From Omnitrophica bacterium RIFCSPHIGHO2_02_FULL_51_18 (lineage in GTDB: Bacteria; Omnitrophota; Gorgyraeia; 2-02-FULL-51-18): a stretch of DNA of 44,894 nucleotides. Of the stretch, positions 2,139-42,551 are shown one piece after another; the first letter of the stretch is position 1; each line of letters opens with the position of its first letter. Location: contig MHFI01000064.1 in the NCBI GenBank assembly GCA_001804125.1, forward strand, positions 13,020 through 57,913. The letters are read 5' to 3'. The position numbers and the translations under genes are program-made. The notes under the pieces were generated by a model. That model had not been told where the DNA came from. It saw only the letters and a program-made list of their open reading frames with translations, and made no database searches.

Positions 2139-2603
2139 ATGTTCTACGGAGAGCATGAGCATAGCATTGACCGAAAAGGGCGTCTCATCATTCCTTCAAA
2201 ATTCAGAGAGGTATTCAAAGAAAACTATGTGGAGCGATTTTTCGTCACTCGGGGCCTTGATATGTGTCTCTTTGTATTCACGGAGGATGAGTGGAAGAAG
2301 CAGGAGTCCAAGTTTAAATCTCTTCCATTTACGTCCAGCGAAACCAGAAATTTCAACCGGCTCTACTTTTCCGGAGCGTGTGAAGTTACCTGTGACAAGC
2401 AAGGGCGAATACTTGTCCCGGAATACTTGAAGGAATATGCACAAATCAAGCGGGATGTCGTGATTGTGGGGGTATCCAACCGCATGGAGATATGGAGCAA
2501 GGAGGCCTGGGCCGCGTTTTACAAGAACACGAAGGACTCCTTTGAAAAGATAGCGGAAAACATGTTCGGCGGCGCTTCCGCTGGCTCGGTGGAATCCTCC
2601 TAG
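2139..2603 (+). CDS. mraZ: Transcriptional regulator MraZ
   Basis: MFYGEHEHSIDRKGRLIIP and DKQGRILVP tandem AbrB-type motifs. Confidence 0.97.
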   Translation: MFYGEHEHSIDRKGRLIIPSKFREVFKENYVERFFVTRGLDMCLFVFTEDEWKKQESKFKSLPFTSSETRNFNRLYFSGACEVTCDKQGRILVPEYLKEYAQIKRDVVIVGVSNRMEIWSKEAWAAFYKNTKDSFEKIAENMFGGASAGSVESS

Positions 2604-2619: not shown

Positions 2620-2823
2620 ATGAAAAAAAACGGCAAAAAGGAATTTCACGCAAGCTTGTTCGCCGGGTCGGAGCTTCAGTTTGAGGCGACGTTGGAAAAT
2701 TTTAAGCGCCGCCGCGCGCTTTCGCCTTTGTCGCCGATAGACATGCGCTCCCGGCTTTTTTTTGAAAGGATTTTGCAGGTTAAGAAAATAAGAGACCTCG
2801 TGTTTTGCGGGAGAGCCCGATAA
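2620..2823 (+). CDS. Small basic hypothetical protein (67 aa)
   Basis: ATG preceded by purine-rich AGGAGAGAGGGG; fills the mraZ-rsmH gap on the operon strand; no recognisable motif. Confidence 0.5.
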   Translation: MKKNGKKEFHASLFAGSELQFEATLENFKRRRALSPLSPIDMRSRLFFERILQVKKIRDLVFCGRAR

Positions 2824-3764
2824 ATTCGTTCCCCTTCGCTAAAGCTTCGGGGGATGCCCTCCGAAGCCTCGGCGTAGGAGGGCAGCATAAAAGCGTTCTA
2901 TTGGCCGAGGCGGTCGAGTGGCTCGGGATACAAAAACCGGCCGTGATCGTGGATGGAACCCTCGGGTCAGGCGGGCATGCGGAGGAGATTTTAAGGCGGC
3001 TCGGGCCAAAGGGGAAGTTGATCGGGTTCGATAAGGATCCGGAAGCGGTCCGTGAAGCCGCCGAGAGGCTTGAAAGGTTCGGGGAACAGGCGATGATTAT
3101 TCGGGATGACTTTAAAAATATCGCAAGGCGTTTGAGCCAGGCGAATGTTCACTCCGCGGACGGCGTGCTGTTGGATCTGGGCGTTTCTTCGATGCAGTTG
3201 GACCGCGAACAGCGTGGATTCAGTTTTTCAAAAAATGGGCCGCTGGACATGCGCATGGACCCTCAAAGCGCTTTGTCCGCGACGGAAATCGTGAACCATT
3301 ATCCGGAAAAAGAGCTTGCGGATATCTTCTGGAATTTCGGTCAGGAGCGCCATTCGCGAAGGATCGCGAGTCGGATAGTCCGGGAGCGCTCCCGGAAAAA
3401 GATCCTGACTACGGCGGCGCTTGAGCAGGTTATTTTCCATTCGGTCCCCAGGACTTACCGCTACGGGCGGATCCACCCCGCGACGAGGTCGTTTCAGGCG
3501 CTTCGGATCGTGGTGAATGACGAGCTGGGCTCCTTGCAGCGCTTTCTATCCGAAGTGGTTTCCCTGTTGAAACCCAGGGGACGGGTCGTTATTATTTCGT
3601 TTCATTCGCTGGAAGATCGGCTTGTCAAGCAGGCGTTTCGTGAGTTTGAGAGGCAGGGGTTGGGCCAAGTATTGACAAAAAAGCCTGTGGTTGCCGGTGA
3701 GCCGGAGATACAGGAAAACCCGAGAGCGCGCAGTGCGAAGCTCCGGGTATTTGAGAAAGCGTAA
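2805..3764 (+). CDS. rsmH: 16S rRNA m4C1402 methyltransferase RsmH (MraW)
   Basis: HKSVLL, VDGTLGSGGHA, DLGVSSMQLD, GPLDMRMD, ISFHSLEDR, NPRARSAKLR. Start uncertain (TTG 2805 is the only standard start before HKSVLL). Confidence 0.96.
   Translation: MRESPINSFPFAKASGDALRSLGVGGQHKSVLLAEAVEWLGIQKPAVIVDGTLGSGGHAEEILRRLGPKGKLIGFDKDPEAVREAAERLERFGEQAMIIRDDFKNIARRLSQANVHSADGVLLDLGVSSMQLDREQRGFSFSKNGPLDMRMDPQSALSATEIVNHYPEKELADIFWNFGQERHSRRIASRIVRERSRKKILTTAALEQVIFHSVPRTYRYGRIHPATRSFQALRIVVNDELGSLQRFLSEVVSLLKPRGRVVIISFHSLEDRLVKQAFREFERQGLGQVLTKKPVVAGEPEIQENPRARSAKLRVFEKA
2829..2882. repeat. REP-like palindrome within the 5' end of rsmH
   Basis: CCTTCGCTAAAGCTTCGGGGG-atg-CCCTCCGAAGCCTCGGCGTAGGAGGG forms an imperfect long hairpin. 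Confidence 0.7.
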
Positions 3765-3776
3765 CCCAGGGGTCCC

Positions 3777-4145
3777 ATGAGGCGTTTTATTGCGTCTTTA
3801 ATCTGTGCGGTGATTGCGGGCCTTTTTTACGTTTCGATGGAAGTCGAAGCTGTGAAGACCGGCTACATGATTCGTCAACAGGAAGAGATGAAGGTGCAGC
3901 ATCTTGACCGCGGCCGGGCGCTCAAGTACAATATTGCACGTCTGGAAGCTCCTCACAATCTTGAACGCAAACTCATGGCGCAGAAGATACTTTTGGCGCC
4001 TCCGAAGGAGTGGCAGACCCTGGTTTTGGTCAATGGCAGCCGGGTGCGTCCCAACGCCCAAGTGGCCGGCCCTTTAAACCAGCCGCCTTATTTTCTTAGG
4101 TTTTTTGTAGGCACGGCCCAAGCGGAAGCCAAAGACACACATTAA
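3777..4145 (+). CDS. ftsL: FtsL-like cell division protein
   Basis: Position between rsmH and ftsI; N-terminal TM then coiled-coil ending in LEAPHNLE. Confidence 0.65.
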   Translation: MRRFIASLICAVIAGLFYVSMEVEAVKTGYMIRQQEEMKVQHLDRGRALKYNIARLEAPHNLERKLMAQKILLAPPKEWQTLVLVNGSRVRPNAQVAGPLNQPPYFLRFFVGTAQAEAKDTH

Positions 4146-4169: not shown

Positions 4170-5975
4170 TTGCTCGACACCCAGCTTTCCAAAACGCGGC
4201 TTTTCTTTATTTTTTCTTTTTTATTCGTAGCCCTTTTTTCCCTCTTTTTACGGCTCGGCTTTCTCCAAATCTTTAAGTCCTCGAAATTCCAATCCATCGC
4301 CCAAAACCAATCCCGGGCTACAATTGAAATACCCCCGGTCCGCGGCAAAATCCTCGACCGCCAGGGACGGGAACTCGCGCTTGACGTGAGGCTCGATTCG
4401 CTTTACGCGGTTTCGCGTGAAATAAAGAACAAATCCCAGCTTGCCGACAGACTTTCAAAGATACTCACAGCAAACCGCGCTTTGCTTTATGAAAAACTCT
4501 CCCGTGACAAGCTTTTTGTGTGGTTGGCGAGAAAAATTTCGGACGTAAAATCTGAGGCTGTGACAAGACTTAAGGAAAGCGGTCTCGGATTCATCAAAGA
4601 ATCGATGCGCGTTTATCCCAAGGGCGAAATTGCCTGCCACCTGGTGGGGTTCACCGATATTGATAACGAGGGGTTGGAGGGGATCGAGCTTCACTACAAC
4701 AGCTTCCTCAAGGGCGTGCCCGGTTGGCGCATGGTCCAAAAGGATGCCAAGCAACGCGAGCTTATTTCAAGGGAAATCGAGATGGTGCCGCCGGTGGACG
4801 GCTACCAGGTGCACCTGACGATCGACGAGGTGATCCAGACGCTGGCCGACCAGGAACTGGCAAATACCTGTAAAAAATTCAATGCCAAGGGCGGCTCGAT
4901 TATCGTGATGGACCCGAAGAGCGGTGACATTCTCGCCCTATCGACCTACCCGGTCTACGACCCAAATAACGCCAAGCAATCAAGCTTGGAGGCGCGCAGG
5001 AACCGTGCGATTACGGACCTCTTTGAACCGGGATCGGTGTTTAAGATTTTTACGCTGGCCGCGATCCTGGAGGGGAAGGCAGTGCGCTTGGATGAGAAGT
5101 TTGATTGTGAAGGCGGTTCATGGGCGGTGGCGGGCAAGGTGCTTCATGACCATAGAGGTCATGGTCTCATGACGTTCAGGGAAATCATTGAAAAGTCGAG
5201 CAATATCGGGACCGTGAAGGGGGCGATGAGGCTCGGCGCCCAGAAACTTTATAAGGCGCTGCGCGCGTTCGGGTTTGGCGAAAGAACGGGCATTCCGCTG
5301 GCCGGCGAAATCAACGGCCTGCTGCCGCATCCAAAGCATTGGTCCAGAAGTTCCATTATCAATATCCCGATCGGCCAGGGCGTTGCCGTCACCCCGCTGC
5401 AGCTGACCTCGGCGGCCGCGGCGGTCGCGAATAACGGCCTGTGGGTGCGGCCCAGGATCGTGACGCATATCGATGACCAGGAGGGGCGTGTCGTCAAGAA
5501 CTTTGACGTTGAACCGGTCCGGCAGGTGATTTCCAAAGAAACCGCGCTCCAAGTGCGTTCCGTGCTGGAGGGCGCCGTGTCGCGCGGCACTGGAAAGAAG
5601 GCTATGGTTCCGGGTTTCAAGGCCGCCGGCAAGACGGGGACCGCGCAGAAACTTCTGCCCAACGGCGCGTATTCGCACGATCATTTTATCGCTTCGTTTG
5701 TGGGTTTCGTACCGTATGATGAGCCGAAGGTCGTGATTGGAGTCAACATTGACGAACCGCATCCGGTGTATTACGGAGGCGAAGTGGCCGCACCCGCTTT
5801 TTCAAAAGTGGCCTCGGGGGTCATGGCTTATTGGCGCATCCAGCAAGCGCTCCCTCCGCCCGAAGTGGTTTCCGCCGCCAAAAATCCCCATAAAAAAGCG
5901 AAAGCAAAAATTACGCCCGGTTCCTTGCCGGCGCCGCTGGAACTGCAGTCTCAGGGCGGCGTTGCCGGGCGATGA
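4170..5975 (+). CDS. ftsI: Class B penicillin-binding protein FtsI
   Basis: RGKILDR, GLEGIE, EPGSVFK (SxxK), KSSN (SxN), GKTGTAQ; dcw position. Confidence 0.95.
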   Translation: MLDTQLSKTRLFFIFSFLFVALFSLFLRLGFLQIFKSSKFQSIAQNQSRATIEIPPVRGKILDRQGRELALDVRLDSLYAVSREIKNKSQLADRLSKILTANRALLYEKLSRDKLFVWLARKISDVKSEAVTRLKESGLGFIKESMRVYPKGEIACHLVGFTDIDNEGLEGIELHYNSFLKGVPGWRMVQKDAKQRELISREIEMVPPVDGYQVHLTIDEVIQTLADQELANTCKKFNAKGGSIIVMDPKSGDILALSTYPVYDPNNAKQSSLEARRNRAITDLFEPGSVFKIFTLAAILEGKAVRLDEKFDCEGGSWAVAGKVLHDHRGHGLMTFREIIEKSSNIGTVKGAMRLGAQKLYKALRAFGFGERTGIPLAGEINGLLPHPKHWSRSSIINIPIGQGVAVTPLQLTSAAAAVANNGLWVRPRIVTHIDDQEGRVVKNFDVEPVRQVISKETALQVRSVLEGAVSRGTGKKAMVPGFKAAGKTGTAQKLLPNGAYSHDHFIASFVGFVPYDEPKVVIGVNIDEPHPVYYGGEVAAPAFSKVASGVMAYWRIQQALPPPEVVSAAKNPHKKAKAKITPGSLPAPLELQSQGGVAGR

Positions 5976-8807: not shown

Positions 8808-9868
8808 GAGAGATTTTTTTCGGGTTTAACGTATTTCGCTATATCACATTCAGGGCTGCGATGGCGAGCATCACGGCTTTTTTGGTGAGCCTGCTCATCG
8901 GTCCATGGATCATCCGTTTTTTACACCACCTCGATCTAAAACAGACGATCAAGCGCGAAGGCTTTTCCCGGCTTTACGAAGCGCATCAGGGAAAGGAAAA
9001 AACCCCGACGATGGGGGGGGTGTTAATTTTGGGGGCGCTTGTGATTTCCACGCTTCTTTGGGCGGATCTTTCGAACCCGTACATCTGGCTTTGCGTGTTG
9101 ACCGTTGTGTGGCTTGGCGCCATCGGGTTTATCGATGATTACCTCAAGCTCCTGAAAAAGGACTCGAAAGGGTTAAAGGCGGTGGGGAAACTCGCCGGGC
9201 AGTGGGTGCTGGGTCTCGGCATCGGTCTGTACCTTTATTTTGAGTCCGCCTCGTGGCAGTGGGTGAGTGTGCCATTCCTAAAACAGGTGTTTTTGGGGCT
9301 CGGGCCCCTGTTTATTCTGTTTGCGGCGCTCGTGATTGTGGGCTCGTCGAACGCCGTGAATCTGACCGACGGGCTCGACGGGCTGGCGATCGGCTGCACG
9401 GCGATGATTGCCGTGACTTACGGGGTTTTTAGCTATGTGGCCGGAAACGTGAAATTCAGCCAGTACCTCCAGATTCCTTTCGTGGACGGCGCCGGGGAAC
9501 TTACGGTGTTTTGCGCGGCGCTCTTCGGCGCGGGCATCGGCTTCCTGTGGTTTAATTCGCATCCGGCCAGCGTGTTCATGGGGGATACGGGGGCGCTGGG
9601 ACTCGGGGGTGCGCTTGGCGCAGTCGCGATTTTCACGAGAAAAGAGCTTTTGCTGCTTTGGGTGGGCGGTGTGTTTGTGGCGGAGGCGATTTCGGTGATT
9701 CTGCAGGTGGCCGGCTACAAACTGAGAAAAAAGCGCATCTTTCTGATGGCGCCGCTTCATCACCATTTTCAGCTCAAAGGGCTCAGCGAATCGAAGGTGG
9801 TGATTCGCTTCTGGATCATTTCGTTTATCTTGTCGCTTTCGGGCCTTGCGGCGCTTAAACTGCAGTAA
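8780..9868 (+). CDS. mraY: Phospho-MurNAc-pentapeptide transferase MraY
   Basis: TPTMGG, GFIDDY, NAVNLTDGLDGL, FMGDTG, MAPLHHHF; TTG 8780 preferred. Confidence 0.97.
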   Translation: MFYHFLYPLREIFFGFNVFRYITFRAAMASITAFLVSLLIGPWIIRFLHHLDLKQTIKREGFSRLYEAHQGKEKTPTMGGVLILGALVISTLLWADLSNPYIWLCVLTVVWLGAIGFIDDYLKLLKKDSKGLKAVGKLAGQWVLGLGIGLYLYFESASWQWVSVPFLKQVFLGLGPLFILFAALVIVGSSNAVNLTDGLDGLAIGCTAMIAVTYGVFSYVAGNVKFSQYLQIPFVDGAGELTVFCAALFGAGIGFLWFNSHPASVFMGDTGALGLGGALGAVAIFTRKELLLLWVGGVFVAEAISVILQVAGYKLRKKRIFLMAPLHHHFQLKGLSESKVVIRFWIISFILSLSGLAALKLQ

Positions 9869-9901: not shown

Positions 9902-11266
9902 ATGAATTTTAAAAATAAAAAAGTCACGGTGGTGGGGCTGGGCCGCAGCGGGTTTGCGGCGGCTAAGTTTTTAGTCAGACAGGGGGCGATCGTGTTTGCG
10001 ACGGACGCCTCAACCCGGAGTGACGTCTTGGAGAATGCCTGCTTTTTGAAAAGTTTGGGGGTGCAAGCCGAAACGGGGCGGCACACCGCGCCTTTCATCA
10101 AAAAAAGCGCGCTGGTGGTGACGAGCCCGGGTGTTCCCAAGACAAGTCCGGCGCTTGTGTTAGCCAAGAAATACAGGCGGCCTGTCATCAGCGAAATCGA
10201 ACTGGCCTCTTATTTTTGCAAAGGCAGGATCATAGGCATTACGGGTTCAAACGGCAAAACGACCACGAGCCACCTGGTGCACCGCGTTTTGAAGCGCGCG
10301 GGCCGGAAAAGCGTTCTATGCGGAAATGTCGGCCGCTCTTTTCTGGACGCGCTGCCGGACATCGATTCAAAGAGCTGGGTGGTGTTGGAGCTCAGTTCAT
10401 TTCAGTTGGAGGACAGCCCGTCTTTTCGTCCGCGCATCGCCGTGGTTCTGAACATCAGCCCCAATCACCTTGATCGGCATAAAACGCTTGAAGATTATGT
10501 GAGTGCCAAGGAGCGTGTGTTTTTAAATCAAAAAAAAACCGATGCGCTGATTTTGAATTTTGATGACCCGGTCGTCAGGAAAATGGCAATGAAGGCTTGT
10601 TCCCGGGTGATCTCCTTCAGCAAAAGCCGTCTGCAACAAGGCGTTTTCTCGGACAGGGGCCATGTCGTGGTCCGGCAGAATGGCGCGGATGTCCGATGGC
10701 TTCGGGTCGCGGGTTTTCAGTTGAAAGGCAGCCACAACCTTGAGAACATCATGGCGGCCACGGCGGTTGCCTGCCTGCTTAAACTTCCCAAAAAATCAGT
10801 TCAAAGCGCTTTGGACCATTTTACAACGCTGGAGCACCGGATGGAGCCTCTGGGAAAGATCGGTGCCGTCCAGTTTGTGAATGATTCCAAGTCGACGACG
10901 CCCGACAGCACGAAGGCCGCCATTCAGGCCCTCCGAACGCCGATCGTGCTGATTGCCGGCGGGCGCGACAAGGGGGTTGATTTCGGCCGGATCGAGCCGT
11001 TGCTTTTAGAACAGGTGAAGGCCGCGGTGCTGTATGGGGAAGCGCGCCGGAAGATAGCCAGCGCCTGGAAAAGCTACCGCTCGTATCAGTTGCAGGAGGA
11101 TTTCAAGCAGGCCGTGGAACGGGGGTTTTCGCTGTGTTCGCCGGGCGACACGCTCCTTTTGTCACCGATGTGCGCGAGCTATGATCAATTTCATTCTTTC
11201 GAAGAACGCGGTGAAACCTTCAAACGCATCTTTGAAGAGTTAAAATGCCGTGCACCCGCCTACTGA
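9902..11266 (+). CDS. murD: UDP-MurNAc-L-Ala D-Glu ligase MurD
   Basis: VVGLGRSG, SPG, ITGSNGKTTT, ELSSFQL, NDSKST, LSPMCASYDQF. Confidence 0.97.
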   Translation: MNFKNKKVTVVGLGRSGFAAAKFLVRQGAIVFATDASTRSDVLENACFLKSLGVQAETGRHTAPFIKKSALVVTSPGVPKTSPALVLAKKYRRPVISEIELASYFCKGRIIGITGSNGKTTTSHLVHRVLKRAGRKSVLCGNVGRSFLDALPDIDSKSWVVLELSSFQLEDSPSFRPRIAVVLNISPNHLDRHKTLEDYVSAKERVFLNQKKTDALILNFDDPVVRKMAMKACSRVISFSKSRLQQGVFSDRGHVVVRQNGADVRWLRVAGFQLKGSHNLENIMAATAVACLLKLPKKSVQSALDHFTTLEHRMEPLGKIGAVQFVNDSKSTTPDSTKAAIQALRTPIVLIAGGRDKGVDFGRIEPLLLEQVKAAVLYGEARRKIASAWKSYRSYQLQEDFKQAVERGFSLCSPGDTLLLSPMCASYDQFHSFEERGETFKRIFEELKCRAPAY

Positions 11267-11276
11267 AAGCTCAGTA

Positions 11277-12377
11277 ATGGAACCTTTAAGAAAGGCCAAA
11301 GATCTCCTGTTTGGATCCGCAATGATTTTAACCGCGATCGGCATTGTCATGATTTACAGCGCGAGCGCCATCTACGCAAACGAACAGATGAAGGATAGCG
11401 CTTATTTCTTAAAGAGGCATCTGGTCTATCTTTCGATCGGTGCGGTGTTGGCGTACCTGGCGTCTGCGATCAACTACCGCTTGTTGCGGAAACATGCAAA
11501 GAAAATCCTGGGGTTTGTGATGGTGCTCATGGTGCTGGTGCTGATCCCCCATGTGGGCCACGCCAGCGGCGGCGCGCGCCGATGGTTTAAGGTGCTGGGT
11601 TTCAGTTTTCAGCCCTCCGAATTTTTAAAACTGGCGATCATTTTTTATTTTGCGGATTTTCTGGATCGCCGCAAGGAATACCTGTCGGACCTGAAGCGCA
11701 CGGTGGCGCCGGCGCTTTTCGTGGTGGGGATTTGTTCGGGGCTCGTATTTTTACAGCCGGATCTCGGTACGGCAATCACCGTGGCGCTCGTGGCATTTCT
11801 TTTATTTTTCGTGGCGGGTTTTAAAGTCGTGCATTTGGTGACCGCGATCCTCCTGGCGCTGCCGGGGCTCGCGTACGCGATGCTTGCCAAGCCTTACCGG
11901 AGAAAGCGGATCCTTGCGTTTTTTAACCCGTGGGAAGACCCGCGGGGCGTCGGATTTCAGATTATCCAGTCGTTCTTGGCGTTCGGCTCGGGCGGAATTT
12001 TCGGCGTGGGCCTCGGGCAGTCTCAGCAGAAGCTTTTCTACCTTCCGGAGTCGCACACGGATTTCATATTTTCAATTATCGGGGAGGAACTCGGATTTCT
12101 CGGGGCCGGCGCGATCGTGGCGCTCTTCATCGCGTTCGTGTTTGCCGGCATGGTGATCGTGATGCGTTCACCCAGTTTTTTTTCACAGCTTTTCGCGCTC
12201 GGGCTTGTGGGGCTGATAGGTCTTGAGGCCGTGGTCAATATCGGGGTGAGTTTGGGCGCGCTTCCGACGAAAGGCCTGTCGCTGCCTTTCATCAGCTACG
12301 GCGGTTCCGCGCTTTTGGTGAATATGATGGCCGTGGGATTTTTGATCAATATCTCCAAAGAATTGCCGCTGGAATGA
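11277..12377 (+). CDS. ftsW: SEDS peptidoglycan polymerase FtsW
   Basis: GARRW, FQPSEFLK, QPDLGT, LPESHTDFIF, LPFISYGGS; ATG 11277 preferred. Confidence 0.96.
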   Translation: MEPLRKAKDLLFGSAMILTAIGIVMIYSASAIYANEQMKDSAYFLKRHLVYLSIGAVLAYLASAINYRLLRKHAKKILGFVMVLMVLVLIPHVGHASGGARRWFKVLGFSFQPSEFLKLAIIFYFADFLDRRKEYLSDLKRTVAPALFVVGICSGLVFLQPDLGTAITVALVAFLLFFVAGFKVVHLVTAILLALPGLAYAMLAKPYRRKRILAFFNPWEDPRGVGFQIIQSFLAFGSGGIFGVGLGQSQQKLFYLPESHTDFIFSIIGEELGFLGAGAIVALFIAFVFAGMVIVMRSPSFFSQLFALGLVGLIGLEAVVNIGVSLGALPTKGLSLPFISYGGSALLVNMMAVGFLINISKELPLE

Positions 12378-13462
12378 AAGTATTGCTGGCTTGCGGAGGC
12401 ACCGGAGGGCACATTTTTCCGGCGTTCAGCGTGGCCGAGGAGCTTAAAGCGCGTGATCCGCGAACGAGGATCGTGTACGTTTGCGGGAAAAAGGACATTG
12501 AGAGCGCGATATTTAAAATTATAGGAACCCAGGAGGTATTCTCGGTGGACAGTGCCGGATTCCGCGGCGCTTCATCTTTATTGAGTCCTTCATTTCTGTT
12601 AAAATTAGTCAGGGGATTCTTGTTTTCGTTCCGGATCCTGAAAAACGAAAAACCGGATGTGGTGGCGGGGTTCGGCGGCCACACTTCGTTTCCGGTAATC
12701 ATGGCGGCCAGGGTGTTAGGGATCCCGACGCTGATTCATGAGCAGAACGTCATACCGGGAGCTGCCAACAGGCTTCTGGCGTATTTTGTCAAAGGGCTGG
12801 CGCTGAGCTTTGAGGAGAGCCGCATCTATTTCAGGGCCCCTCGGTGCGTGCGCGTGACCGGCAACCCGATCCGAGCGTCGATAGAGCGTGAGTGCCGGGA
12901 GGAGGCGCTTAAGTTCTTTAGGTTTTCAGACCATAAAAAGACACTTCTCGTATTGGGAGGGAGCCAGGGTGCCGAGTCGATCAACACGGTGTTCTTTGAG
13001 GTTTTAAATGAGCTCCCGGAAAGCTTGAAGGAAAAACTGCAAGTGCTTCATTTGTGCGGCAAGATGCCGGAAACAGAAGCGGAGCAAAGATACAGCGCGG
13101 CGGGAATCGCCGCGCGCGCTTATTCATTTTTCGACCGCATGGACCTGGCATACGGGGTGACGGATGTGGCTCTGGGCCGGGCGGGAGCCACGTTTTTGGC
13201 CGAGATTCAGGCAAAAGATATTCCCGCGATTCTCGTGCCGTATCCGTTTGCCGGAGAACACCAACTCATGAACGCGAAAGTGTTTGCGCGTGAAAAGGAA
13301 GCGGAAATTATCGCCCAAAGCGAACTCAATCCGGTGACGCTCAAAAAATCGCTCGAAAAATATTTAACGCAAGTCCGGCAAAAAGCGCGCCCGCCGGGTC
13401 TTTCCGGTTCGTTGTCCCCGGCGCGCGCGCTTTTGGCGGATTTTATTGAGGAATTTGTATGA
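12374..13462 (+). CDS. murG: Lipid II GlcNAc transferase MurG
   Basis: GGTGGHIFP, HEQN, TGNPIR, GGSQGA, RAGA, HQLMNA. Confidence 0.97.
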   Translation: MKVLLACGGTGGHIFPAFSVAEELKARDPRTRIVYVCGKKDIESAIFKIIGTQEVFSVDSAGFRGASSLLSPSFLLKLVRGFLFSFRILKNEKPDVVAGFGGHTSFPVIMAARVLGIPTLIHEQNVIPGAANRLLAYFVKGLALSFEESRIYFRAPRCVRVTGNPIRASIERECREEALKFFRFSDHKKTLLVLGGSQGAESINTVFFEVLNELPESLKEKLQVLHLCGKMPETEAEQRYSAAGIAARAYSFFDRMDLAYGVTDVALGRAGATFLAEIQAKDIPAILVPYPFAGEHQLMNAKVFAREKEAEIIAQSELNPVTLKKSLEKYLTQVRQKARPPGLSGSLSPARALLADFIEEFV

Positions 13463-15717
13463 CGGCGCCCGGGGCGGTGCATTTCATAGGGATCGGTGGA
13501 GTCGGGATGAGCGGCATCGCGCGCATGTATCTTTCGATGGGACATGCCGTGCAGGGCAGTGACGTGAAGCGAAATGCGATGCTGGATGCGCTTGAGAGTG
13601 ACGGCGCCCGGATTTTAATAGGTCATGATCCTGGCCATGTGACCGGGGCGGGCCTGGTGGTTTATTCCTCTTCAATCCCTGAAAATCACCCGGAGCGTGT
13701 GGCCGCCAAGGCCAAAGGCATGCGTCTCATCCATCGTTCCGAAGCGCTGGCGGAGCTGTGCCGGGGTAAGTTCACGATTGCGGTGACCGGCACTCACGGC
13801 AAAACGACTACGACGGCGTTGGTGGGCATGGTATTAAAGGAAGCCGGCCGCGATCCTTCGATCGTCGTGGGGGGCGTCGTGAATTCGTTCGGCGGCAATG
13901 CCTGCTATGGGCAGGGCCCCGAAGTGGTCATTGAAGCCGACGAAAGCGATTCGTCATTTTTAAATTTTTCCCCCTCGGTCGAAGTGATTACGAACATCGA
14001 AGCCGAACACATGGACCACTTCGGCACCATGGAATGTGTTGAAACGGCTTACCGGGATTTCATTCGGCGCCTGCCCCCGGAAGGCGAGTGGTTTGGCTGC
14101 TCGGAAGATCCGCGGGTTTTGAAAATCGCCGGGATGGGTCTTCGCAAGGCGACCCGCTATGGTTTTGATCCGGAAAGAAGCGAGCTTTACGCGACCGACA
14201 TCGTGGAATGTGAAAATGGCGTGCGGGGGGTCGCTTTTAAGGTTTGGAGAAAAGGCGAATGTCTGGGGCTTGTGAAACTGAGGATCGTGGGACGGCACAA
14301 TGTGTTGAATGCGCTCGGCGCGATCGGCGTCGGCATAAAGCTGGGTGTTTCGTTTGGCCAGATTGTGAGCGGGCTTGAGAAATATGAGGGCGCCGGACGG
14401 CGGTTTGACGTGAGGTATGAAGACTCAAAATTTCTGGTCGTGGATGATTACGCGCATCACCCGACGGAAATCCGCGAGACCCTGAAGGCCGCGAAGGGCT
14501 TGAACAGGAAAAGGATCGTGGCTCTCTTCCAACCGCACCGTTACACGCGCACGCAGGCGCTTTTGGAGGAGTTTGGGAACAGCTTTTGGGCCGCCGACAA
14601 ACTTTTCATTACGGATATTTACGCAGCGAGCGAAGAGCCGATCCCGGGTGTGAGCGGCGCAAACGTTTATCGGGCCGTTAAAGGCGCGGGCCACCCGAAT
14701 GTCTTGTTTATTGAGAGAAACCGCGCGGCTCAGGCGGTGCTTCAAGAGGTCCAGGCCGGGGATCTGGTGATCGCGCTCGGCGCCGGCGATATTTTTCAGG
14801 TAGCGGATGAGCTTTCTGATTTTTTGAAAAGGAATATTTTTTCCGGGAGGGTCCGGGGAAAAGTGCTTTTTAACGAAGCGCTTTCGAAACACACGTCGCT
14901 TAAAGTCGGCGGCCCGGCTGAATTCTGGATTGAGCCCGAAGATGAAGAGGACTTGGAGAGCGTTTTGTCGGTGTGCCTGGAAAACGGAATTAAAATTACG
15001 GTGTTCGGCGGCGGCAGCAATGTATTGCCTCCGGATTCAGGGTTGAAAGGCGCGGTGATCCACCTGAATTCGCTTTATTTCCGCAAGATTTGGGAGGAGA
15101 ATGGCCGTGTGACCGCGCGCGCGGGGGTCCCCAACACGCTTTTCATTCAATATGCGCTGGGGCAGGGTTTGGGGGGACTTGAGTTTTTGTCGGGCATTCC
15201 GGGCTGCGTCGGCGGCGCGGTGGCGATGAACGCCGGGAGCCACGGCCAATCCGTCGACACGCTGGTAGAGCGTGTGCGCGTGGTTTATTTTTCAGGTGAG
15301 CGGCGGACGCTTAAGAAAAACGAAATCAGTTTTAATTACCGTTCCTCCGGGCTCGGGGACTGCATTATTACGGAAGCTTCTTTCGCGCTTCCGAAGTGCG
15401 ATGGGGCCCGGATCCGGAAGCTCCTTGAGGAGTATCGCGGCTACCGGGCGAGGACCCAGGATCTGTGGCATGCCAGTGCCGGCTGCATGTTTAAGAATCC
15501 CGCCGAGGGCGGTGCTTCGAGCGGGAAGCTGATTGAGGACGCGGGGCTGAAAGGCAGGACACTAGGCAAGGCGCAGGTGTCCCCGAAACACGCCAATTTT
15601 ATAGTCAATCTCGGCGGCGCAAGCTCCCGGGACGTGCGTGCGCTGATTGAAGAAGTTAAAAAAACGGTTTATGAAAAATTTCACGTCGAACTTGAAACGG
15701 AAGTGAAGATCTTTTGA
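13459..15717 (+). CDS. murC/murB: MurC-MurB fusion (L-Ala ligase + enolpyruvyl-GlcNAc reductase)
   Basis: MurC motifs GIGGVGMSG, GTHGKTTTT, EADESD, DDYAHHPTE, then without stop MurB motifs HTSLKVGGPA, GGGSN, GIPG..GGAVAMNAG, SAGCMFKNP, KHANF, LETEV. Confidence 0.95.
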   Translation: MTAPGAVHFIGIGGVGMSGIARMYLSMGHAVQGSDVKRNAMLDALESDGARILIGHDPGHVTGAGLVVYSSSIPENHPERVAAKAKGMRLIHRSEALAELCRGKFTIAVTGTHGKTTTTALVGMVLKEAGRDPSIVVGGVVNSFGGNACYGQGPEVVIEADESDSSFLNFSPSVEVITNIEAEHMDHFGTMECVETAYRDFIRRLPPEGEWFGCSEDPRVLKIAGMGLRKATRYGFDPERSELYATDIVECENGVRGVAFKVWRKGECLGLVKLRIVGRHNVLNALGAIGVGIKLGVSFGQIVSGLEKYEGAGRRFDVRYEDSKFLVVDDYAHHPTEIRETLKAAKGLNRKRIVALFQPHRYTRTQALLEEFGNSFWAADKLFITDIYAASEEPIPGVSGANVYRAVKGAGHPNVLFIERNRAAQAVLQEVQAGDLVIALGAGDIFQVADELSDFLKRNIFSGRVRGKVLFNEALSKHTSLKVGGPAEFWIEPEDEEDLESVLSVCLENGIKITVFGGGSNVLPPDSGLKGAVIHLNSLYFRKIWEENGRVTARAGVPNTLFIQYALGQGLGGLEFLSGIPGCVGGAVAMNAGSHGQSVDTLVERVRVVYFSGERRTLKKNEISFNYRSSGLGDCIITEASFALPKCDGARIRKLLEEYRGYRARTQDLWHASAGCMFKNPAEGGASSGKLIEDAGLKGRTLGKAQVSPKHANFIVNLGGASSRDVRALIEEVKKTVYEKFHVELETEVKIF

Positions 15718-16646
15718 GAGAAGAAAAAATAGTGGTGCTGGCCGGCGGGCCTTCCTGCGAAAGGGAGGTTTCGCTCAGCTCAGGGAAGGCCGTGTTTGAT
15801 GCCTTGTCATCCCGGGGTCTTTCGGTGCGGTTGCTCGACCCGGTCGGGGATTTCATCCGCGAACTTAAGAAGGAAAAAGTCACGGTTGTTTTTATTGCGT
15901 TGCACGGCGAGTTTGGAGAGGACGGGACCCTGCAGGGCTTGCTTGAAGAAGCCAATATCGCTTACACCGGGTCGGGCCCCGGGGCCAGTGAACTGGCGTT
16001 TCACAAGTCGAAGTCCCAATTCATTTTTAAACAGGCTAAATTGCCGGTGCCCGAATTTTATGTATCGGCTGAAAAAGATTTTTCCGGGGCCTCTTCCTCA
16101 AAAATGAATTTCCCGGTGGTTGTGAAGCCTTCGGCCGCCGGTTCGAGCTTCGGCGTGAGCGTCGTTTTCAGCGCCAGCGACTTTCAAAAGGCCTGTCGGG
16201 AGGCGTTTCGTTATTCCCATGAAATTCTCGTTGAGCGCTATATCCGGGGACGGGAGCTGACGGTGGGAATTTTGGAAGAAAAGCCGCTGCCGATTGTCGA
16301 AGTCATGGCCCGGAGGAGTTTTTATGACTACGAGGCAAAGTACAAGGACGCGGGTACGCGCTATGAGTGCCCGGCGAAGCTTGAGGCCGGCCTCGCGCGC
16401 CAGCTTCAGAAAATCGCCGTTCACGCGCATCAAGCGCTGGGTTGTGAGGTTATGAGCCGCGCTGATTTCATTTTAGGCGGCGACGGCTCGGTTTTTCTGC
16501 TGGAAATCAATACGATTCCCGGGTTGACCGGCAAGAGCTTGCTGCCGAAGGCCGCAAAAGCGGCGGGGGTCGATTTTCCGGGTCTTTGTGTTAAAATCTT
16601 AGAATCTTCTTTAAAGAAAAGGCTGTTGTCATGGTCAAACCGCTGA
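15714..16646 (+). CDS. ddl: D-alanine--D-alanine ligase
   Basis: GGPSCEREVSL, LHGEFGEDG, GSSFG, YDYEAKY, LEINTIPG. Confidence 0.96.
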   Translation: MREEKIVVLAGGPSCEREVSLSSGKAVFDALSSRGLSVRLLDPVGDFIRELKKEKVTVVFIALHGEFGEDGTLQGLLEEANIAYTGSGPGASELAFHKSKSQFIFKQAKLPVPEFYVSAEKDFSGASSSKMNFPVVVKPSAAGSSFGVSVVFSASDFQKACREAFRYSHEILVERYIRGRELTVGILEEKPLPIVEVMARRSFYDYEAKYKDAGTRYECPAKLEAGLARQLQKIAVHAHQALGCEVMSRADFILGGDGSVFLLEINTIPGLTGKSLLPKAAKAAGVDFPGLCVKILESSLKKRLLSWSNR

Positions 16647-17446
16647 AAAGTAAGGTAAGAAGAAGGAACCTAAGCCCGATTTTCTCCGTTAAGTTTTTGG
16701 GGGGATTTAAATCGTTTTTACTTTCCTCGCTGCCGTATATTCTTTCGCTCACCGTGCTGGGTGTTTTATTCGGCACCGTGGCGGTGTATGCGGTGAATTC
16801 TCCGTCTTTCCGTCTGGAGGAGGTTCGCGTGCTGAATATCGGGAGCTTGGCGGCGGAACAGGCGTTTAAATTTTGCGAGCTTCAAAAAGGCGAGAATCTC
16901 GTGACGTTGGACCTTGTGAATGTGCAGGAGCTGATCAAAAGAAAGCACCCGGAGTTTAAGGAGGTGCGCGTCAGGCGTGTGCTCCCAAACCGCATCGAGG
17001 TTCTTTTGAAACGCCGCACGCCGATAGCGCAGATCGCGTTTTCATCCCGTTACGTGCAGGTGGACAAGAGCCTGGTGGTTTTGCCCGGCACGGCTTCGTC
17101 GCCGTTTCGGAATCTTACGATTCTGGAAGGCGTGCCGGTCCCACCCGAGGGGTTGCTGGTAGGCGCGAGCCTCCGCGAGGCGGGGACACTCAAAGCTTTA
17201 AAACTGGCCGAGTATATCAAGGGGCATCGTTTGCTGCGAAAGCACACTCTTTCCAGAATCGATATCAGCGATCCCAGGAACATATCCGTTTATGTGGACG
17301 GCGATATCGAAATCCGTCTGGGATTCACGCACTTGGTGGAGAGGCTCAAAATTCTCGATCAGACGTTGAAGACGGTGGAGCTCGATCGGGTGAAAATACG
17401 TTACATTGATCTTCGCTTCGACGACGTGGTAATCGGCCCCCGATGA
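16631..17446 (+). CDS. ftsQ: Cell division protein FtsQ/DivIB
   Basis: Single TM, POTRA-like VRVRRVLPNRIEV, C-terminal YIDLRF; position after ddl. Confidence 0.88.
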   Translation: MVKPLKSKVRRRNLSPIFSVKFLGGFKSFLLSSLPYILSLTVLGVLFGTVAVYAVNSPSFRLEEVRVLNIGSLAAEQAFKFCELQKGENLVTLDLVNVQELIKRKHPEFKEVRVRRVLPNRIEVLLKRRTPIAQIAFSSRYVQVDKSLVVLPGTASSPFRNLTILEGVPVPPEGLLVGASLREAGTLKALKLAEYIKGHRLLRKHTLSRIDISDPRNISVYVDGDIEIRLGFTHLVERLKILDQTLKTVELDRVKIRYIDLRFDDVVIGPR

Positions 17447-18492
17447 ATTTCGTCAGAAAGATTTACCCTAAGCGCACGCTCTCCGTGCTGGACGTGGGCG
17501 CGGAGACGGTCGTGGCATTGATTGCCCAAAGAAAAGGGGACGGCGCGTTTCAGGTGCTCGGCGCCGGCGATTCCCCGGCCGGCGGTACAAAGCAAGGAGT
17601 GATCGCGCATCTGGGTGATGCCGTGGAATCGGTGGCGGCGGCGATCCGCAGGGCCGAAAGCACTGCGGGCGTGTCCGTCGAGACGCTTTATTTTAATTTG
17701 GAGGACCCGGAAGCACAGAGCCTCGAGGTGCGGGGATCAAAGCATTTGTCCGGAGAAGGCGAGATCCGGCGCTTCGATGTCGAGCAGGCCTGCCAGACCG
17801 CCAAGCGCCTGGCGGCCCATTTTGACCGCACGATCATTTATTTCAAAGAGCTGGGGTTTATAATCGACGAGCGCGATCATGTGATAAATCCGCTGGGCGT
17901 GTTCGGCAGTAAGTTAGACGTGGTTGCGCACGTGGTCCAGGTGCGTTCACGGGTGTGTGAAGAATGGAACCGTCTCATGGCGCGCGCGGGCGTCGAAAGG
18001 CCCGTCAGCGTTTTTTCGGCCTTGTCCACGGCCTGCGGGATTTTACCCAGGGAAGACCGGATAAAGAAGCGGGTCATCGTAGAAGCCGGCCGGGATTTGA
18101 CGAGTGTATTTCTATTTGAAAATAACGGCATCACGGATTACAGGGTCTGTCTGACCGGCGATAGGGGCCCCGATGAAATCGGGATCCATGCGGCCCAGAT
18201 GGCCCGGGAGCTTATGAAAAGAAGCGAAGGCGCCGAGCAGTTTTTTTTGGCAGGGGATCTCACGGCGAACGATTCTCTGGAACGCGTTTTAGAGAATGAA
18301 CTGGGGATCCCCGTGCGCCGTTCTTCGCCTTTAGGCGTCGAGACACTGAGCCGCCCCCGGGATGCGGGTATCGTAGGGCTTTTGCACGTGGCCGATGAGC
18401 TTGAGAGAAAAAACCCCGCGTTTCACACAAAGAAGCACCTCTTCTCCACGATGCGTGACCGAGCCGTTTCTTATATCAACGAGTATTTTTAG
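17443..18492 (+). CDS. ftsA: Divergent, shortened FtsA-like protein (349 aa)
   Basis: Follows ftsQ; LDVG phosphate-1 loop, GGTKQGVI..AVESVAAAIRRAESTAG, 1C-type FIIDE..VINPLGVFGSKL, C-terminal amphipathic helix; second half degenerate. Confidence 0.8.
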   Translation: MNFVRKIYPKRTLSVLDVGAETVVALIAQRKGDGAFQVLGAGDSPAGGTKQGVIAHLGDAVESVAAAIRRAESTAGVSVETLYFNLEDPEAQSLEVRGSKHLSGEGEIRRFDVEQACQTAKRLAAHFDRTIIYFKELGFIIDERDHVINPLGVFGSKLDVVAHVVQVRSRVCEEWNRLMARAGVERPVSVFSALSTACGILPREDRIKKRVIVEAGRDLTSVFLFENNGITDYRVCLTGDRGPDEIGIHAAQMARELMKRSEGAEQFFLAGDLTANDSLERVLENELGIPVRRSSPLGVETLSRPRDAGIVGLLHVADELERKNPAFHTKKHLFSTMRDRAVSYINEYF

Positions 18493-18504
18493 GGAGTTCA
18501 TAAT

Positions 18505-19725
18505 TTGTATAGAAGCTCAATACCCGGAATCCTGTCGGACCTTAAAAAAGGCAGGCTCATCATCGTCATTGATGATGAAGACAGGGAAAATGAAGGCGAC
18601 CTGGTCGTCGCGGCCGAGTTTGCAACACCGGCGAAGATTAATTTTATGGCTAAACACGGCCGCGGAATTATCTGTGTGTCGATGGAGGGGAAGCGCCTTG
18701 AGGGACTCGGGGTAGACCTCATGGTTGCCCATAATACCGATGAGCTGAAGACGGCTTGGACGGTTTCGATTGACGCCCGGCGCGGCATCAGCACGGGCAT
18801 TTCAGCTTATGACCGGGCCCGCACGATCAAGGTATTGATTGACCCCAAGACCAAAAAAGAGGATTTGGTGAGACCGGGACACCTGTTTCCGTTGAGGGCG
18901 CGTGAGGGCGGGGTGTTGGTGCGGGCGGGACACACGGAAGCCTCCGTGGATCTGATGAAACTGGCGGAGCTGTATCCGGCCGGCGCTATTTGCGAGATCA
19001 TGAACGATGACGGCAGCATGGCGCGCACGCCGGATTTGATCGCGTTTGCCAAAAAACACGGGCTAAAGATTTGCACCATCCGGGACTTGATTGAGTACCG
19101 CCGAAAAAAAGAAAAGCTTGTTTTTAAAGCGGTCGAAACGCGCATCACGAACGATTACGGCGAGTTTAAGCTGGTGGCTTACGAGTCGACCGTGGACAAG
19201 GATTATCACGTGGCGCTCGTGATGGGCGATATTTCACCGAATAAACCGGCTTTGGTGCGCGTGCATTCGGAGTGCTTTACCGGCGATATCCTGGGCTCCA
19301 AGCGGTGTGATTGCGGCGAGCAGCTTCACAACGCGATGAAATTGATTGCGAAGGAAAGGCAGGGGGTGCTTCTTTATATGAGGCAGGAAGGCCGGGGAAT
19401 AGGACTTTTGAATAAATTGAAGGCTTATCAATTGCAGGACAAGGGATTGGATACCGTGGAGGCCAATAAGAAACTGGGATTTCCGGCGGACCTGCGTCAC
19501 TATGGGGTGGGCGCCCAGATTTTGGCCGATTTGGGGATCCGGAGCATAAGGCTTCTCACGAATAATCCGAGAAAAATCGTGGGTCTGGAAGGTTATGGAC
19601 TTAAAGTAGTTGAGCGCGTGCCGATTGAAATCAAACCGCATCCGCATAACCGGAAATACCTGGAAACCAAGAGGAAGAAGCTGGGGCATTTTTTGGGCGC
19701 GCTTCATGGAAAAAAGAAAAGATAA
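18505..19725 (+). CDS. ribBA: Bifunctional DHBP synthase / GTP cyclohydrolase II
   Basis: [51 protein letters not shown]. Confidence 0.97.
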
Positions 19726-25311: not shown

Positions 25312-25340
25312 ATCTTACAGAAAACGAGTTTGAGTGTCAA
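25312..25340 (-). promoter_or_regulatory. sigma70 promoter of rpsT
   Basis: On minus strand TTGACA (25340-25335)-17 bp-TAAGAT (25317-25312). Confidence 0.75.
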
Positions 25341-25341
25341 A

Positions 25342-26910
25342 ATGAATTCATCGCTTGCAAAATCCGCCGGAATTCTAGGGAGTCTCACGGCCTTGAGCCG
25401 GGTGCTGGGGTTCGTGCGGGACCTCATTATCGCGACCGCGTTCGGGACGGGTGTCGCAGCCGAGGCGTTTGTCGTGAGCTTCAAGATTCCGAACCTCCTG
25501 AGGGACCTCGTGGGAGAAGGTGCCATGAACTCGGCGTTTGTGCCGGTGCTGACGGAGTGTCATGAAAAAAGAAAGGAAGAGTTCTGGCATCTGGTGTCGA
25601 CGCTGTTTTTTATGATGACGGCGATTTTGATTTTGTTGTCCGTTTTGGGGTGCGTGTTTGCGCCGCAGATTGTGCGTTTGATTGCCCCGGGTTTCGTCCT
25701 CTCCACGGACCCCGAAAAATTTCCTCTCACCGTTAAACTCACACGCGTGATATTTCCTTATTTGTTTTTCATCGGCCTCTCGGCGCTTGCTATGGGCGTC
25801 TTGAATTCCCTGAAGGAGTTCGGAAGCTCCGCGCTCGGGCCCGTATTTTTAAATATCTCGATGATCGTGGCGGGTTTCTTTTATGAAAAACACTACGGCC
25901 CCATGGCGCTTGTGGTGGGCGTCCTGGCCGGCGGCGTGCTGCAGCTGGGGTGTCAGATCGGGCCGCTTTTAAAGCGGGGGTTCCGCCTCACCCCACCTCG
26001 GTGGAACCACGATTCCGTAAAAAGGATCGGAAGGCTTCTCCTGCCGCGCGTGTTCGGTTCTGCGCTTTACCAGATCAACGTGTTCGTCGATTCCGTCCTG
26101 GCTTCGTTTGAAACGATCATCGGACCCGGCGGCCAGTCCGCGCTTTATTACTCGAACCGTCTTTTTCAGCTGCCGCTTGCGATTTTCGGCTATTCGATTG
26201 CGCAGGCTGCGTTGCCCACGTTTTCAAGTCAGATGGTTCTTAAGGATCTCGAAGGATTTAAGTCGACGTTCTCGGCGGCTGTGCGGTCGCTGGCGCTTGT
26301 GGTGCTGCCGGCCTCCGCAGGGCTTATCACCTTGTGCGGGCCGATCGTGCGAATCATTTTCGAGCACGGCCGTTTCAACGCGTATTCGACGCAGATCACG
26401 CAGAGCGCGCTTTATTTTTATGCGTTCGGGCTTTTGTCGTGCTGCCTGATCAAACTTTTGGTGAACGCGTTCTACGCGATGCAGGACACGCGCACGCCCG
26501 TGAAGACGATGCTGATGGCCGTCGTTTTGAACGTGATCTTAAGCCTTCTTATGATGCGGCCCCTGAAGATCGGCGGGTTGGCGCTGGCCTCCACGCTGTC
26601 GGCCACCGTCAACGTCGTTATGCTCTATGTGTTTTTAAGAAAGAGGGTGGGCGCGATTGATGAACGGCGGATTCTCAAAAGCATCTTTAAAATTTCGACG
26701 GCGGCGGCGGTCATGGGGTTTTTTTCGTTTTCATTCAACCATTGGGTTCTGGAGGCGCATCGCGGTGCCCCGACGACCCTTCAGGCGTTTTATCTTTTTC
26801 TGGGGATCAGTTTAAGCGTCTTGGTGTATCTGGGTTCCGTGTGGGTCTTGAAAGTCGAAGCCCCGCCCTTCCAAAGTGGACGGAGCTTCTTTAAAAAAGG
26901 TGTCAAATGA
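25342..26910 (+). CDS. murJ: Lipid II flippase MurJ (MviN)
   Basis: SRVLGFVRD, IPNLLRDLVGEGA..AFVP, NRLFQLP, FYAMQDTRTP; many TMs. Confidence 0.96.
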   Translation: MNSSLAKSAGILGSLTALSRVLGFVRDLIIATAFGTGVAAEAFVVSFKIPNLLRDLVGEGAMNSAFVPVLTECHEKRKEEFWHLVSTLFFMMTAILILLSVLGCVFAPQIVRLIAPGFVLSTDPEKFPLTVKLTRVIFPYLFFIGLSALAMGVLNSLKEFGSSALGPVFLNISMIVAGFFYEKHYGPMALVVGVLAGGVLQLGCQIGPLLKRGFRLTPPRWNHDSVKRIGRLLLPRVFGSALYQINVFVDSVLASFETIIGPGGQSALYYSNRLFQLPLAIFGYSIAQAALPTFSSQMVLKDLEGFKSTFSAAVRSLALVVLPASAGLITLCGPIVRIIFEHGRFNAYSTQITQSALYFYAFGLLSCCLIKLLVNAFYAMQDTRTPVKTMLMAVVLNVILSLLMMRPLKIGGLALASTLSATVNVVMLYVFLRKRVGAIDERRILKSIFKISTAAAVMGFFSFSFNHWVLEAHRGAPTTLQAFYLFLGISLSVLVYLGSVWVLKVEAPPFQSGRSFFKKGVK

Positions 26911-41287: not shown

Positions 41288-41436
41288 CCCCACCACCTCT
41301 TTCAGCGCCCCACCACCTGTTTGTCCGATTGCTTTGCAATCGGTTCGCAAAGCGAACCAAACAAGTGGTGGGGCGCCCCATTCGCTTCAAGGCGAATGGG
41401 TTTGTTCTTCGAACAAAGAAAGAGGTGGTGGGGTGA
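41284..41436. mobile_element. MITE-like multi-hairpin insertion at the mcsA/mcsB junction
   Basis: Perfect 17-bp terminal IR (41287-41303/41418-41434), nested hairpins, GTGA repeated at both ends. Confidence 0.65.
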
Positions 41437-42491: not shown

Positions 42492-42498
42492 TGCCGAC

Positions 42499-42551
42499 TG
42501 TCATCTCTCGCGAAGTTTATCCCGAACGAAGTCGAGGGGCTCGAAATGACA
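42499..42551. repeat. Degenerate REP-like element (TGTCAT...ATGACA)
   Basis: Terminal TGTCAT/ATGACA and internal CGAACGAAGTCGAGG resembling the lysS element. Confidence 0.5.

Follow-up and report, generated by a model that had tools for sequence, protein, structure and literature searches.

Results

A dcw cluster that ends at ftsA

The window analyzed here, a stretch of 44,894 nucleotides (nt) from the genome of Omnitrophica bacterium RIFCSPHIGHO2_02_FULL_51_18 (contig MHFI01000064.1, positions 13,020 to 57,913 of the forward strand), carries a division and cell wall (dcw) gene cluster from which ftsZ is missing. FtsZ is near-universal in walled bacteria, and in the canonical dcw order ftsA is followed by ftsZ. 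This order is broken in the window, where ribBA starts 12 nt past an ftsA-like gene. The cluster is otherwise complete, running on one strand from mraZ through ftsQ and ftsA. The genes are listed below with the profile or domain matches on which the calls are based.

2139..2603, + strand: mraZ, first gene of the dcw cluster (TIGR00242, E 6.7e-43, 146 bits against a cut-off of 98)
2805..3764, + strand: mraW/rsmH, methyltransferase (PF01795, E 1.6e-110)
3777..4145, + strand: putative ftsL-like open reading frame (ORF) of 122 amino acids (aa) between mraW and ftsI (NF053549 FtsL, E 0.0033, under the cut-off)
4170..5975, + strand: ftsI, class B penicillin-binding protein of the divisome (PBP_dimer and Transpeptidase)
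5972-7435, + strand: murE (Mur ligase domains)
7275-8807, + strand: murF (Mur ligase domains)
8702-9868, + strand: mraY (Glycos_transf_4 and MraY_sig1)
9902-11266, + strand: murD (Mur ligase domains, MurD-like_N)
11250..12377, + strand: ftsW, SEDS polymerase of the divisome (PF01098, E 7.5e-112)
12374-13462, + strand: murG (Pfam domains)
13459-15717, + strand: murC-murB fusion of 752 aa (Mur ligase domains, then FAD_binding_4 and MurB_C)
15714-16646, + strand: ddl (Pfam domains)
16631-17446, + strand: ftsQ (POTRA_1, E 8.9e-8; FtsQ_DivIB_C, E 2.1e-8)
17443-18492, + strand: ftsA-like gene, 349 aa (SHS2_FTSA, PF02491, E 1.1e-12; stop codon TAG at 18490-18492)
18493-18504, + strand: ftsA-ribBA spacer of 12 nt, containing GGAG (from the sequence)
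18505..19725, + strand: ribBA, with a TTG start at 18505 (DHBP_synthase, E 8.2e-87; GTP_cyclohydro2, E 3.5e-77)
25330..26910, + strand: murJ, lipid II flippase, 7 kb 3' of the cluster (PF03023, E 6.8e-123)

A preliminary description of this DNA had read the cluster as intact from mraZ to ftsQ-ftsA, with the late mur genes, ftsL, ftsI and ftsW, and had placed the ftsA-like stop at 18492 and ribBA at 18505, 12 bp apart. The domain matches agree with this gene content and the coordinates hold in the sequence. The ftsL call is the weak one, its position and a single weak match tentatively suggesting an FtsL-like protein. The true starts of murF and mraY probably lie downstream of the first in-frame start. 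The gene ribBA opens a riboflavin operon (ribBA-ribH-nusB-ribD-ribE, followed by genes for a BamD-like protein, LptE, HolA and S20); it is no divisome gene, and the cluster ends before it.

No canonical FtsZ in the genome or in the sampled phylum

The assembly to which the window belongs comprises 1.53 Mb in 69 contigs and is 92.5% complete. Neither the Tubulin/FtsZ GTPase model (PF00091) nor FtsZ_C (PF12327) matched anything in this assembly, while the control search was positive in 13 of 14 genomes. As a further control for FtsZ, a Geobacter and a Nitrospirota genome gave matches of 171-173 bits and a Planctomycetota genome gave none. The best hit of a tblastn search of the genome with Escherichia coli FtsZ had an E value of 1.3. 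The preliminary description had reported no ORF with a tubulin signature in the window, and the same holds genome-wide, since a six-frame scan for the glycine-rich signature returned three matches, none of them inside a tubulin-like ORF. It had also allowed that ftsZ might lie elsewhere in the genome; neither the profiles nor tblastn found it there, and there is no second canonical ftsA.

We extended the search with the Tubulin model to three overlapping samples of genomes. None of 41 relatives, from family to class level, gave a match, and neither did any of 201 genomes of the phylum with a completeness of 85% or more. The largest sample, of 401 phylum genomes, 341 of which reach a completeness of 90% or more, yielded two matches at 46-50 bits (399-427 aa; L166:1012-2295, - strand, and L167:1318-2517, + strand). 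Both proteins carry a TubZ-like_C domain, the solved structures that best match the L166 protein are those of the plasmid-partition proteins RepX/TubZ, and both genes sit amid unrelated metabolic genes, with no division gene in the 1.5-kb flanks read. Judged from their sequences, these two members of the tubulin family are TubZ-like proteins and not canonical FtsZ.

Thus none of the sampled phylum genomes yielded a canonical FtsZ. Because the absence extends across the entire sampled phylum (0/41, 0/201 and only the two TubZ-like proteins in 401), the loss of FtsZ is old and lineage-wide, and the earlier suggestion that this genome represents an intermediate state does not stand. The proposal of an FtsZ-less divisome in a peptidoglycan-making lineage is borne out by a full peptidoglycan pathway in a genome in which no FtsZ was found.

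FtsZ helper proteins and the wall-building machinery

Proteins that work with FtsZ were searched for in the own genome and, for several of them, in a set of 21 genomes. ZapA and SepF gave no match in the own genome, and the best MinD match there, at 53.6 bits, fell short of the cut-off of 212.9. MinC was above its cut-off in 0/21 genomes, and MinE was likewise found in none of the 21. The FtsE model drew 21 ABC-ATPase matches, the best being the Lol-like ATPase of the window; FtsEX is not demonstrated, since no FtsE match passes the equivalog cut-off.

The remaining machinery is well represented. All 21 genomes encode a full-length FtsK comprising 4TM, alpha, motor and gamma domains; FtsB was found in 16 of the 21, the own genome included, and RodZ_C in 20. 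MreB is encoded in all 101 phylum genomes searched for it. Contig C58 of the own genome carries an mreB-mreC-mreD-PBP2-rodA operon, which holds paralogues of two divisome genes, a second class B penicillin-binding protein (compare ftsI) and a rodA 36% identical to ftsW. Both the wall-building core of the divisome and the elongasome are complete. Among the proteins named in the preliminary description for a genome-wide profile search, MreB, RodZ and FtsK were therefore recovered and SepF, ZapA and MinCDE were not found; for FtsZ itself the search yielded nothing canonical.

On contig C36 (L115:87-3204, - strand), ftsK (740 aa) is followed after a gap of 79 bp by rodZ (271 aa, HTH_25 and RodZ_C). 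In 17/21 relatives the two genes share a contig and a strand, at a distance of 1.2-1.9 kb; in three they are on different contigs and one has no RodZ match. Such a pairing in an FtsZ-less lineage is suggestive. As a separate observation, at least 15 phylum genomes of several families have mreB and ftsA on one contig, separated by 10-15 kb; in the own genome, ftsA is on contig C64 and mreB on C58.

The own genome encodes two SPOR-domain proteins. One of them is FtsN-like, a bitopic protein of 205 aa in which a cytoplasmic tail and a single membrane helix are followed by a linker and the SPOR domain (C4:37859-38473; L170:1501-2115). It recurs in 38/41 relatives, with a conserved tail motif (QQELF ... 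RFP ... QKPIL) ahead of the membrane helix, and is a candidate partner for subdomain 1C of FtsA.

A predicted FtsA fold without subdomain 2B

The FtsA-like protein scores 125 bits against the FtsA equivalog TIGR01174 (cut-off 175.85), the match covering only positions 3-221 of the 371 in the profile, whereas 45/46 genomes of an FtsZ-containing phylum reach 404-506 bits over the full profile. An AlphaFold (AF2) model built from 28 sequences (pLDDT 88.5, pTM 0.84) had FtsA structures as its top Foldseek matches (TMq 0.77-0.80). In VIA, the closest entry was Vibrio maritimus FtsA (7q6i_D) with Z 34.5 and a root mean square deviation (rmsd) of 2.1 Å over 309 residues; the Thermotoga maritima entry of FtsA with an FtsZ peptide gave Z 30.4, PilM reached Z 23.9, and no MreB match exceeded 19.6. 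The protein is thus predicted to have the FtsA fold with its 1C (SHS2) insert. It is the only FtsA in the own genome, where the other matches to PF14450 are MreB, a PilM-PilN fusion and one unscanned ORF of 345 aa.

A gap of 62 residues in the protein lies opposite E. coli FtsA 240-301, which we take to be subdomain 2B, and 16 of the 78 residues in the region equivalent to 228-305 are kept. In the model, the strand 229-237 leads through a loop of five residues directly into the helix 243-260, and the predicted structure is that of an FtsA reduced to 1A, 1C and 2A. The description of the protein as a 2B-less FtsA was therefore accurate, E. coli residues 240-301 having no counterpart in it. In published work, FtsA from which 2B was deleted no longer binds FtsZ, and recruitment of FtsQ and FtsN is assigned to 1C (PMC4281207).

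The nucleotide-binding motifs have changed as well. Phosphate-2 (DxGGGT) reads E-A-G-R-D-L-T-S and the adenosine motif GG reads G-D; both glycine motifs are altered in 7/7 members of the family, and the GGG of phosphate-2 is intact in 0/69 Omnitrophota FtsAs. At the C terminus, where a helix is predicted at 333-348, the tail ending in INEYF is conserved, and 66 of the 69 complete proteins have an [YF]F motif there, in alignment with the tail of E. coli FtsA.

When set beside canonical FtsA (E. coli 7Q6D, V. maritimus 7Q6F/7Q6I, T. maritima 1E4G/4A2A), the protein is alike in fold (Z 30-34.5, rmsd 2.1-3.2 Å over 304-315 residues), in the 1C insert, in the position of its gene directly after ftsQ and in the C-terminal aromatic-F motif. 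It differs in the missing 62 residues, the altered glycine motifs, the low profile score and the lack of an FtsZ to bind.

Subdomain 2B across the phylum

With the FtsA of the window as query, a match was obtained in 78 of 121 phylum genomes. Of these 78 proteins, 70 were extracted (those of G042, G067, G083, G091, G100, G111, G122 and G141 were left out), and dropping the incomplete L109 left 69. In each, we scored the equivalent of E. coli FtsA 228-305, a region of 78 residues. At most 28 residues of this region are kept in 28/69 proteins; two more have lost part of it, and the other 39 have it at full length. The distribution over families was as follows.

11-16 residues kept: 12 proteins (the window's family, 7/7; family f44, 4/4; family f11, 1/2)
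26-28 residues kept: 16 proteins (families f13, f14, f6 and f11)
54-65 residues kept: 2 proteins (family f17, 2/3)
73-89 residues kept: 39 proteins (all other families)

In an FtsA tree built without the columns of this region, the short forms fall into three clades, requiring a minimum of three changes. One of the short-form families is assigned to another class, and the residual lengths differ among the clades.

Conservation was also compared among the proteins that have kept the region. Across the 39 full-length Omnitrophota FtsAs, identity is 0.20 in 2B, 0.25 in the core and 0.31 in 1C. Across 29 FtsAs of an FtsZ-containing phylum (L225, which has an internal TAG, was left out), it is 0.655 in 2B against 0.66 in the core. 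The ratio of 2B to core identity is therefore 0.82 in Omnitrophota and 0.99 in the FtsZ-containing phylum, a soft contrast at identities of 20-30%. Within Omnitrophota, 1C is the most and 2B the least conserved region of FtsA.

Gene order around ftsA and the ftsA-ribBA junction

The order ddl-ftsQ-ftsA-ribBA recurs in 6/6 relatives of the same family, with an ftsA-ribBA spacer of 13-25 nt. Placement of ribBA after ftsA is confined to these loci (6/6 versus 0/23 loci from other families), so that in the window's family a riboflavin operon occupies the place 3' of ftsA. The pair ftsQ-ftsA is more widely kept, being adjacent in 28/29 related loci; the remaining locus lacks its upstream flank. Across 17 loci from other families, ftsA is followed by a gene for a YggS-type PLP protein (seven), ProC (four), an alpha/beta hydrolase (two) or another protein (four). 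In many bacteria, yggS (ylmE) and its neighbors come after ftsZ, and a YggS-like protein or ProC next to ftsA would fit a clean excision of ftsZ.

A word-index search located DNA nearly identical to the window in nine public runs from six studies, all but one of the runs being labelled groundwater or soil metagenomes. Four of the nine were compared with the window, and none of the four was flagged as its possible source. Contigs from two other studies bridge the junction with no differences (X5 record 13, 18444-18907; X7 record 18, 18286-18598), and in run X3 a contig of a diverged strain also crosses it. Together with the order shared by the six relatives, these bridging contigs support the junction at 18480-18520, which the preliminary description had singled out for checking.

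Discussion

We favor the reading, with a probability of roughly 0.85, that the window encodes part of an FtsZ-less Omnitrophota divisome in which the wall-building core has been kept and FtsA has been kept but remodelled.

Several observations weigh against this reading or against parts of it. The taxonomic labels are mixed: the closest named relatives of the SecA protein are metagenome-assembled genomes (MAGs) of Candidatus Omnitrophota at 58-61% identity, MAGs with other labels reach 59%, and of the 26 closest FtsQ records (56-75% identical) 11 are labelled Candidatus Omnitrophota/Omnitrophica and 15 'uncultured Planctomycetia bacterium', the latter all TPA records. We followed the Omnitrophota label because the genome has ftsA, ftsB, ftsW and the complete set of mur genes, in contrast to the gene losses reported from Planctomycetes. 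The genome is 92.5% complete and every genome searched is a metagenome bin; moreover, searches based on homology would miss a very divergent FtsZ or a nonhomologous replacement of it. No FtsA match was obtained in 43 of the 121 genomes, mostly in one family (7/42 matched), and since a single fast-evolving query cannot show absence, these misses leave retention of FtsA short of phylum-wide. As for the number of 2B deletions, the well-supported branches of the tree alone force only one origin. A tree constrained to hold the short forms in a single clade is 24.3 log-likelihood units worse, with an approximately unbiased (AU) test p value of 0.033 (LG+G4), a marginal result obtained under a simpler model after the tree had been seen. 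Two or more independent deletions are probable but not proven. Lastly, FtsA is the fastest-evolving of four neighboring genes in the family (identity to six relatives 36-56% for FtsA, 61-75% for FtsQ, 55-66% for Ddl and 77-86% for RibBA), it falls under the equivalog cut-off, and its last 14 residues are weakly amphipathic, with a hydrophobic moment of 0.33 (E. coli, 0.62) that is attained in 39% of shuffles; membrane anchoring is doubtful in the window's family because of this weak moment.

One alternative is that FtsZ was replaced by a very divergent tubulin/FtsZ homolog, or by a nonhomologous cytoskeletal protein, that escapes the profiles. The searches relied on sequence profiles throughout, many ORFs of the genome were never looked at, and two genomes of the phylum do encode TubZ-like proteins. 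Against such a replacement, the own genome holds no PF00091 candidate and no match to PspA/IM30 or dynamin, and no conserved gene fills the slot of ftsZ, the 3' neighbors of ftsA varying between families. We consider this alternative unlikely.

The rapid evolution of FtsA, its low profile score and its weak C-terminal amphipathicity, together with the loss of the nucleotide-binding glycines, could also be the marks of a decaying relic without function. Yet the frame is intact at 340-350 aa in 7/7 members of the family despite identities of 36-56%, the fold is predicted with confidence, and the position after ftsQ is held in nearly all related loci. The C-terminal [YF]F motif persists, and 1C is the best-conserved region. 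Decay is accordingly a quite improbable account of this gene.

It is very improbable that the ftsA-like gene encodes a PilM-type pilus protein. PilM shares the FtsA-like fold and its structures match at Z 21-24, and a DxG...T phosphate-2 loop without GGG presumably resembles that of PilM; but FtsA structures match at Z 29-34.5, the SHS2_FTSA insert is present and the gene sits after ftsQ. PilM, unlike the protein in question, belongs to a pilMNO context, and the genome has a separate PilM-PilN fusion for it beside PilO on contig C17. This fusion (649 aa; L117:820-2769, - strand) adjoins the PilO-like gene, with a ParA/MinD-superfamily ATPase (AAA_31, 316 aa) directly upstream; the coordinates L121:1114-2064 (- strand) belong to the same region.

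A genome that is 92.5% complete and split into 69 contigs might keep ftsZ in the unassembled 7.5% of the bin. This is scarcely credible given that no canonical FtsZ was found in 401 phylum genomes, of which 341 have a completeness of 90% or more, that several relatives are assembled into just 4-10 contigs, and that ZapA, SepF and MinCDE are missing as well and FtsA lacks its docking subdomain. The chance that the ftsA-ribBA junction is a chimeric join concealing ftsZ is negligible: the source is a short-read metagenome bin and none of the listed contigs in the compared runs covers the entire 2.5-kb stretch, but contigs of two independent runs cross the junction without differences and all six same-family genomes repeat this gene order, their spacers measuring 13-25 nt, which excludes it.

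For the FtsZ-less divisome with a remodelled FtsA, we infer interactions, localizations and a mode of division from the observed gene inventory, deletion and distribution and from the predicted fold. The gene ftsZ would have been lost at or before the last common ancestor of the phylum, along with those for ZapA, SepF and MinCDE, a placement reasoned from the lack of FtsZ throughout the sampled phylum. The peptidoglycan-building core would have been retained, with FtsQ, an FtsL-like protein, FtsB, FtsW-FtsI, FtsK, MurJ and an FtsN-like SPOR protein, as would the full elongasome of MreB, MreC, MreD, PBP2, RodA and RodZ. Unlike in Planctomycetes and Chlamydiae, FtsA would also have been retained, in the window's family without the FtsZ-docking 2B and with 1C best kept. 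Septal peptidoglycan synthesis by FtsW-FtsI might then drive constriction under the control of FtsQLB and perhaps of the FtsN-like protein; FtsA might be confined to the role of a hub, in the cytoplasm or at the membrane, that works through 1C; and MreB-RodZ and FtsK might select and organize the site, as in Chlamydia. The adjacency of ftsK and rodZ fits this last step. As a whole, the mechanism of septal synthesis, FtsA hub and MreB-RodZ/FtsK site has, in our analysis, a little less than an even chance of being right.

A broader and rather doubtful proposal would make Omnitrophota a third case of FtsZ-less, peptidoglycan-based cytokinesis, in which FtsA was kept as a 1C hub for FtsQLB, FtsWI and the FtsN-like protein, 2B was shed at least twice independently, and ftsK-rodZ with MreB provides the positional cue. 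If it were true, Omnitrophota FtsAs would form a natural separation-of-function series for the roles of FtsA beyond the tethering of FtsZ.

To our knowledge, Chlamydia is the only case in which the division of walled cells without FtsZ has been worked out in some detail. The lineage of the window resembles Chlamydia in lacking FtsZ and in having peptidoglycan genes, FtsK, MreB, RodZ, FtsQ, an FtsL-like protein, FtsW and FtsI. It differs in keeping FtsA, FtsB and an intact, contiguous dcw cluster. Chlamydiae are reported to lack FtsA (PMC8178401; PMC12283558), and chlamydial FtsK and MreB-RodZ are described as acting in FtsZ-less division (PMC11975371; PMC7029139). With Planctomycetes, the lineage shares the lack of FtsZ and a PVC-type affiliation. 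For Planctomycetes, loss of ftsA and ftsB has been reported, and for several of their orders also that of mur genes and ftsW (PMC12283558); all of these genes are present in the genome of the window.

The loss of FtsZ in this phylum is not new, as the preliminary description might have suggested, since Omnitrophica are already listed as FtsZ-less in a figure legend of Pende 2021 (Nat Commun, PMC8178401). The same legend implies, as a pattern only, that FtsA is retained. In 2016, Rivas-Marin et al. reported one member with FtsZ, 'Omnitrophica bacterium OLB16'. We do not count OLB16 as an FtsZ-bearing counterexample, NCBI now placing it in Candidatus Hinthialibacterota. A study of 2025 groups Omnitrophota with the phyla whose dcw genes are highly conserved, and the Omnitrophota genomics paper of Seymour et al. 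(2023) contains no mention of FtsZ, FtsA, the divisome, peptidoglycan or MreB. No description of a 2B-less FtsA was found among the papers listed for Omnitrophota with FtsZ or FtsA, or for subdomain 2B with FtsA and FtsZ. The probably repeated trimming of FtsA thus appears to be the undescribed part of a loss of FtsZ that is already published, and the window adds numbers and anatomy rather than a new phenomenon.

The phylum, which is large and whose members are free-living or host-associated, would offer a natural experiment in which every other part of the divisome was kept and the FtsZ-binding lobe of FtsA was probably deleted repeatedly. It poses the questions of which functions of FtsA are independent of FtsZ and whether building the septal wall is by itself enough to drive constriction.

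Other features of the window

Two further loci of the window are noted here. The gene prfB (RF2; 31060-32157) has a classical programmed +1 frameshift, with a short frame running from ATG at 31060 into CTT TGA at 31126-31131 behind GGGAGG, and a main PCRF/RF-1 frame extending to 32157. At 40760-44893 lies an mcsA-mcsB-clpC-like set as in Gram-positive bacteria, consisting of genes for a 175-aa protein with a UVR motif, an ATP:guanido phosphotransferase and a ClpC-type AAA+ protein.

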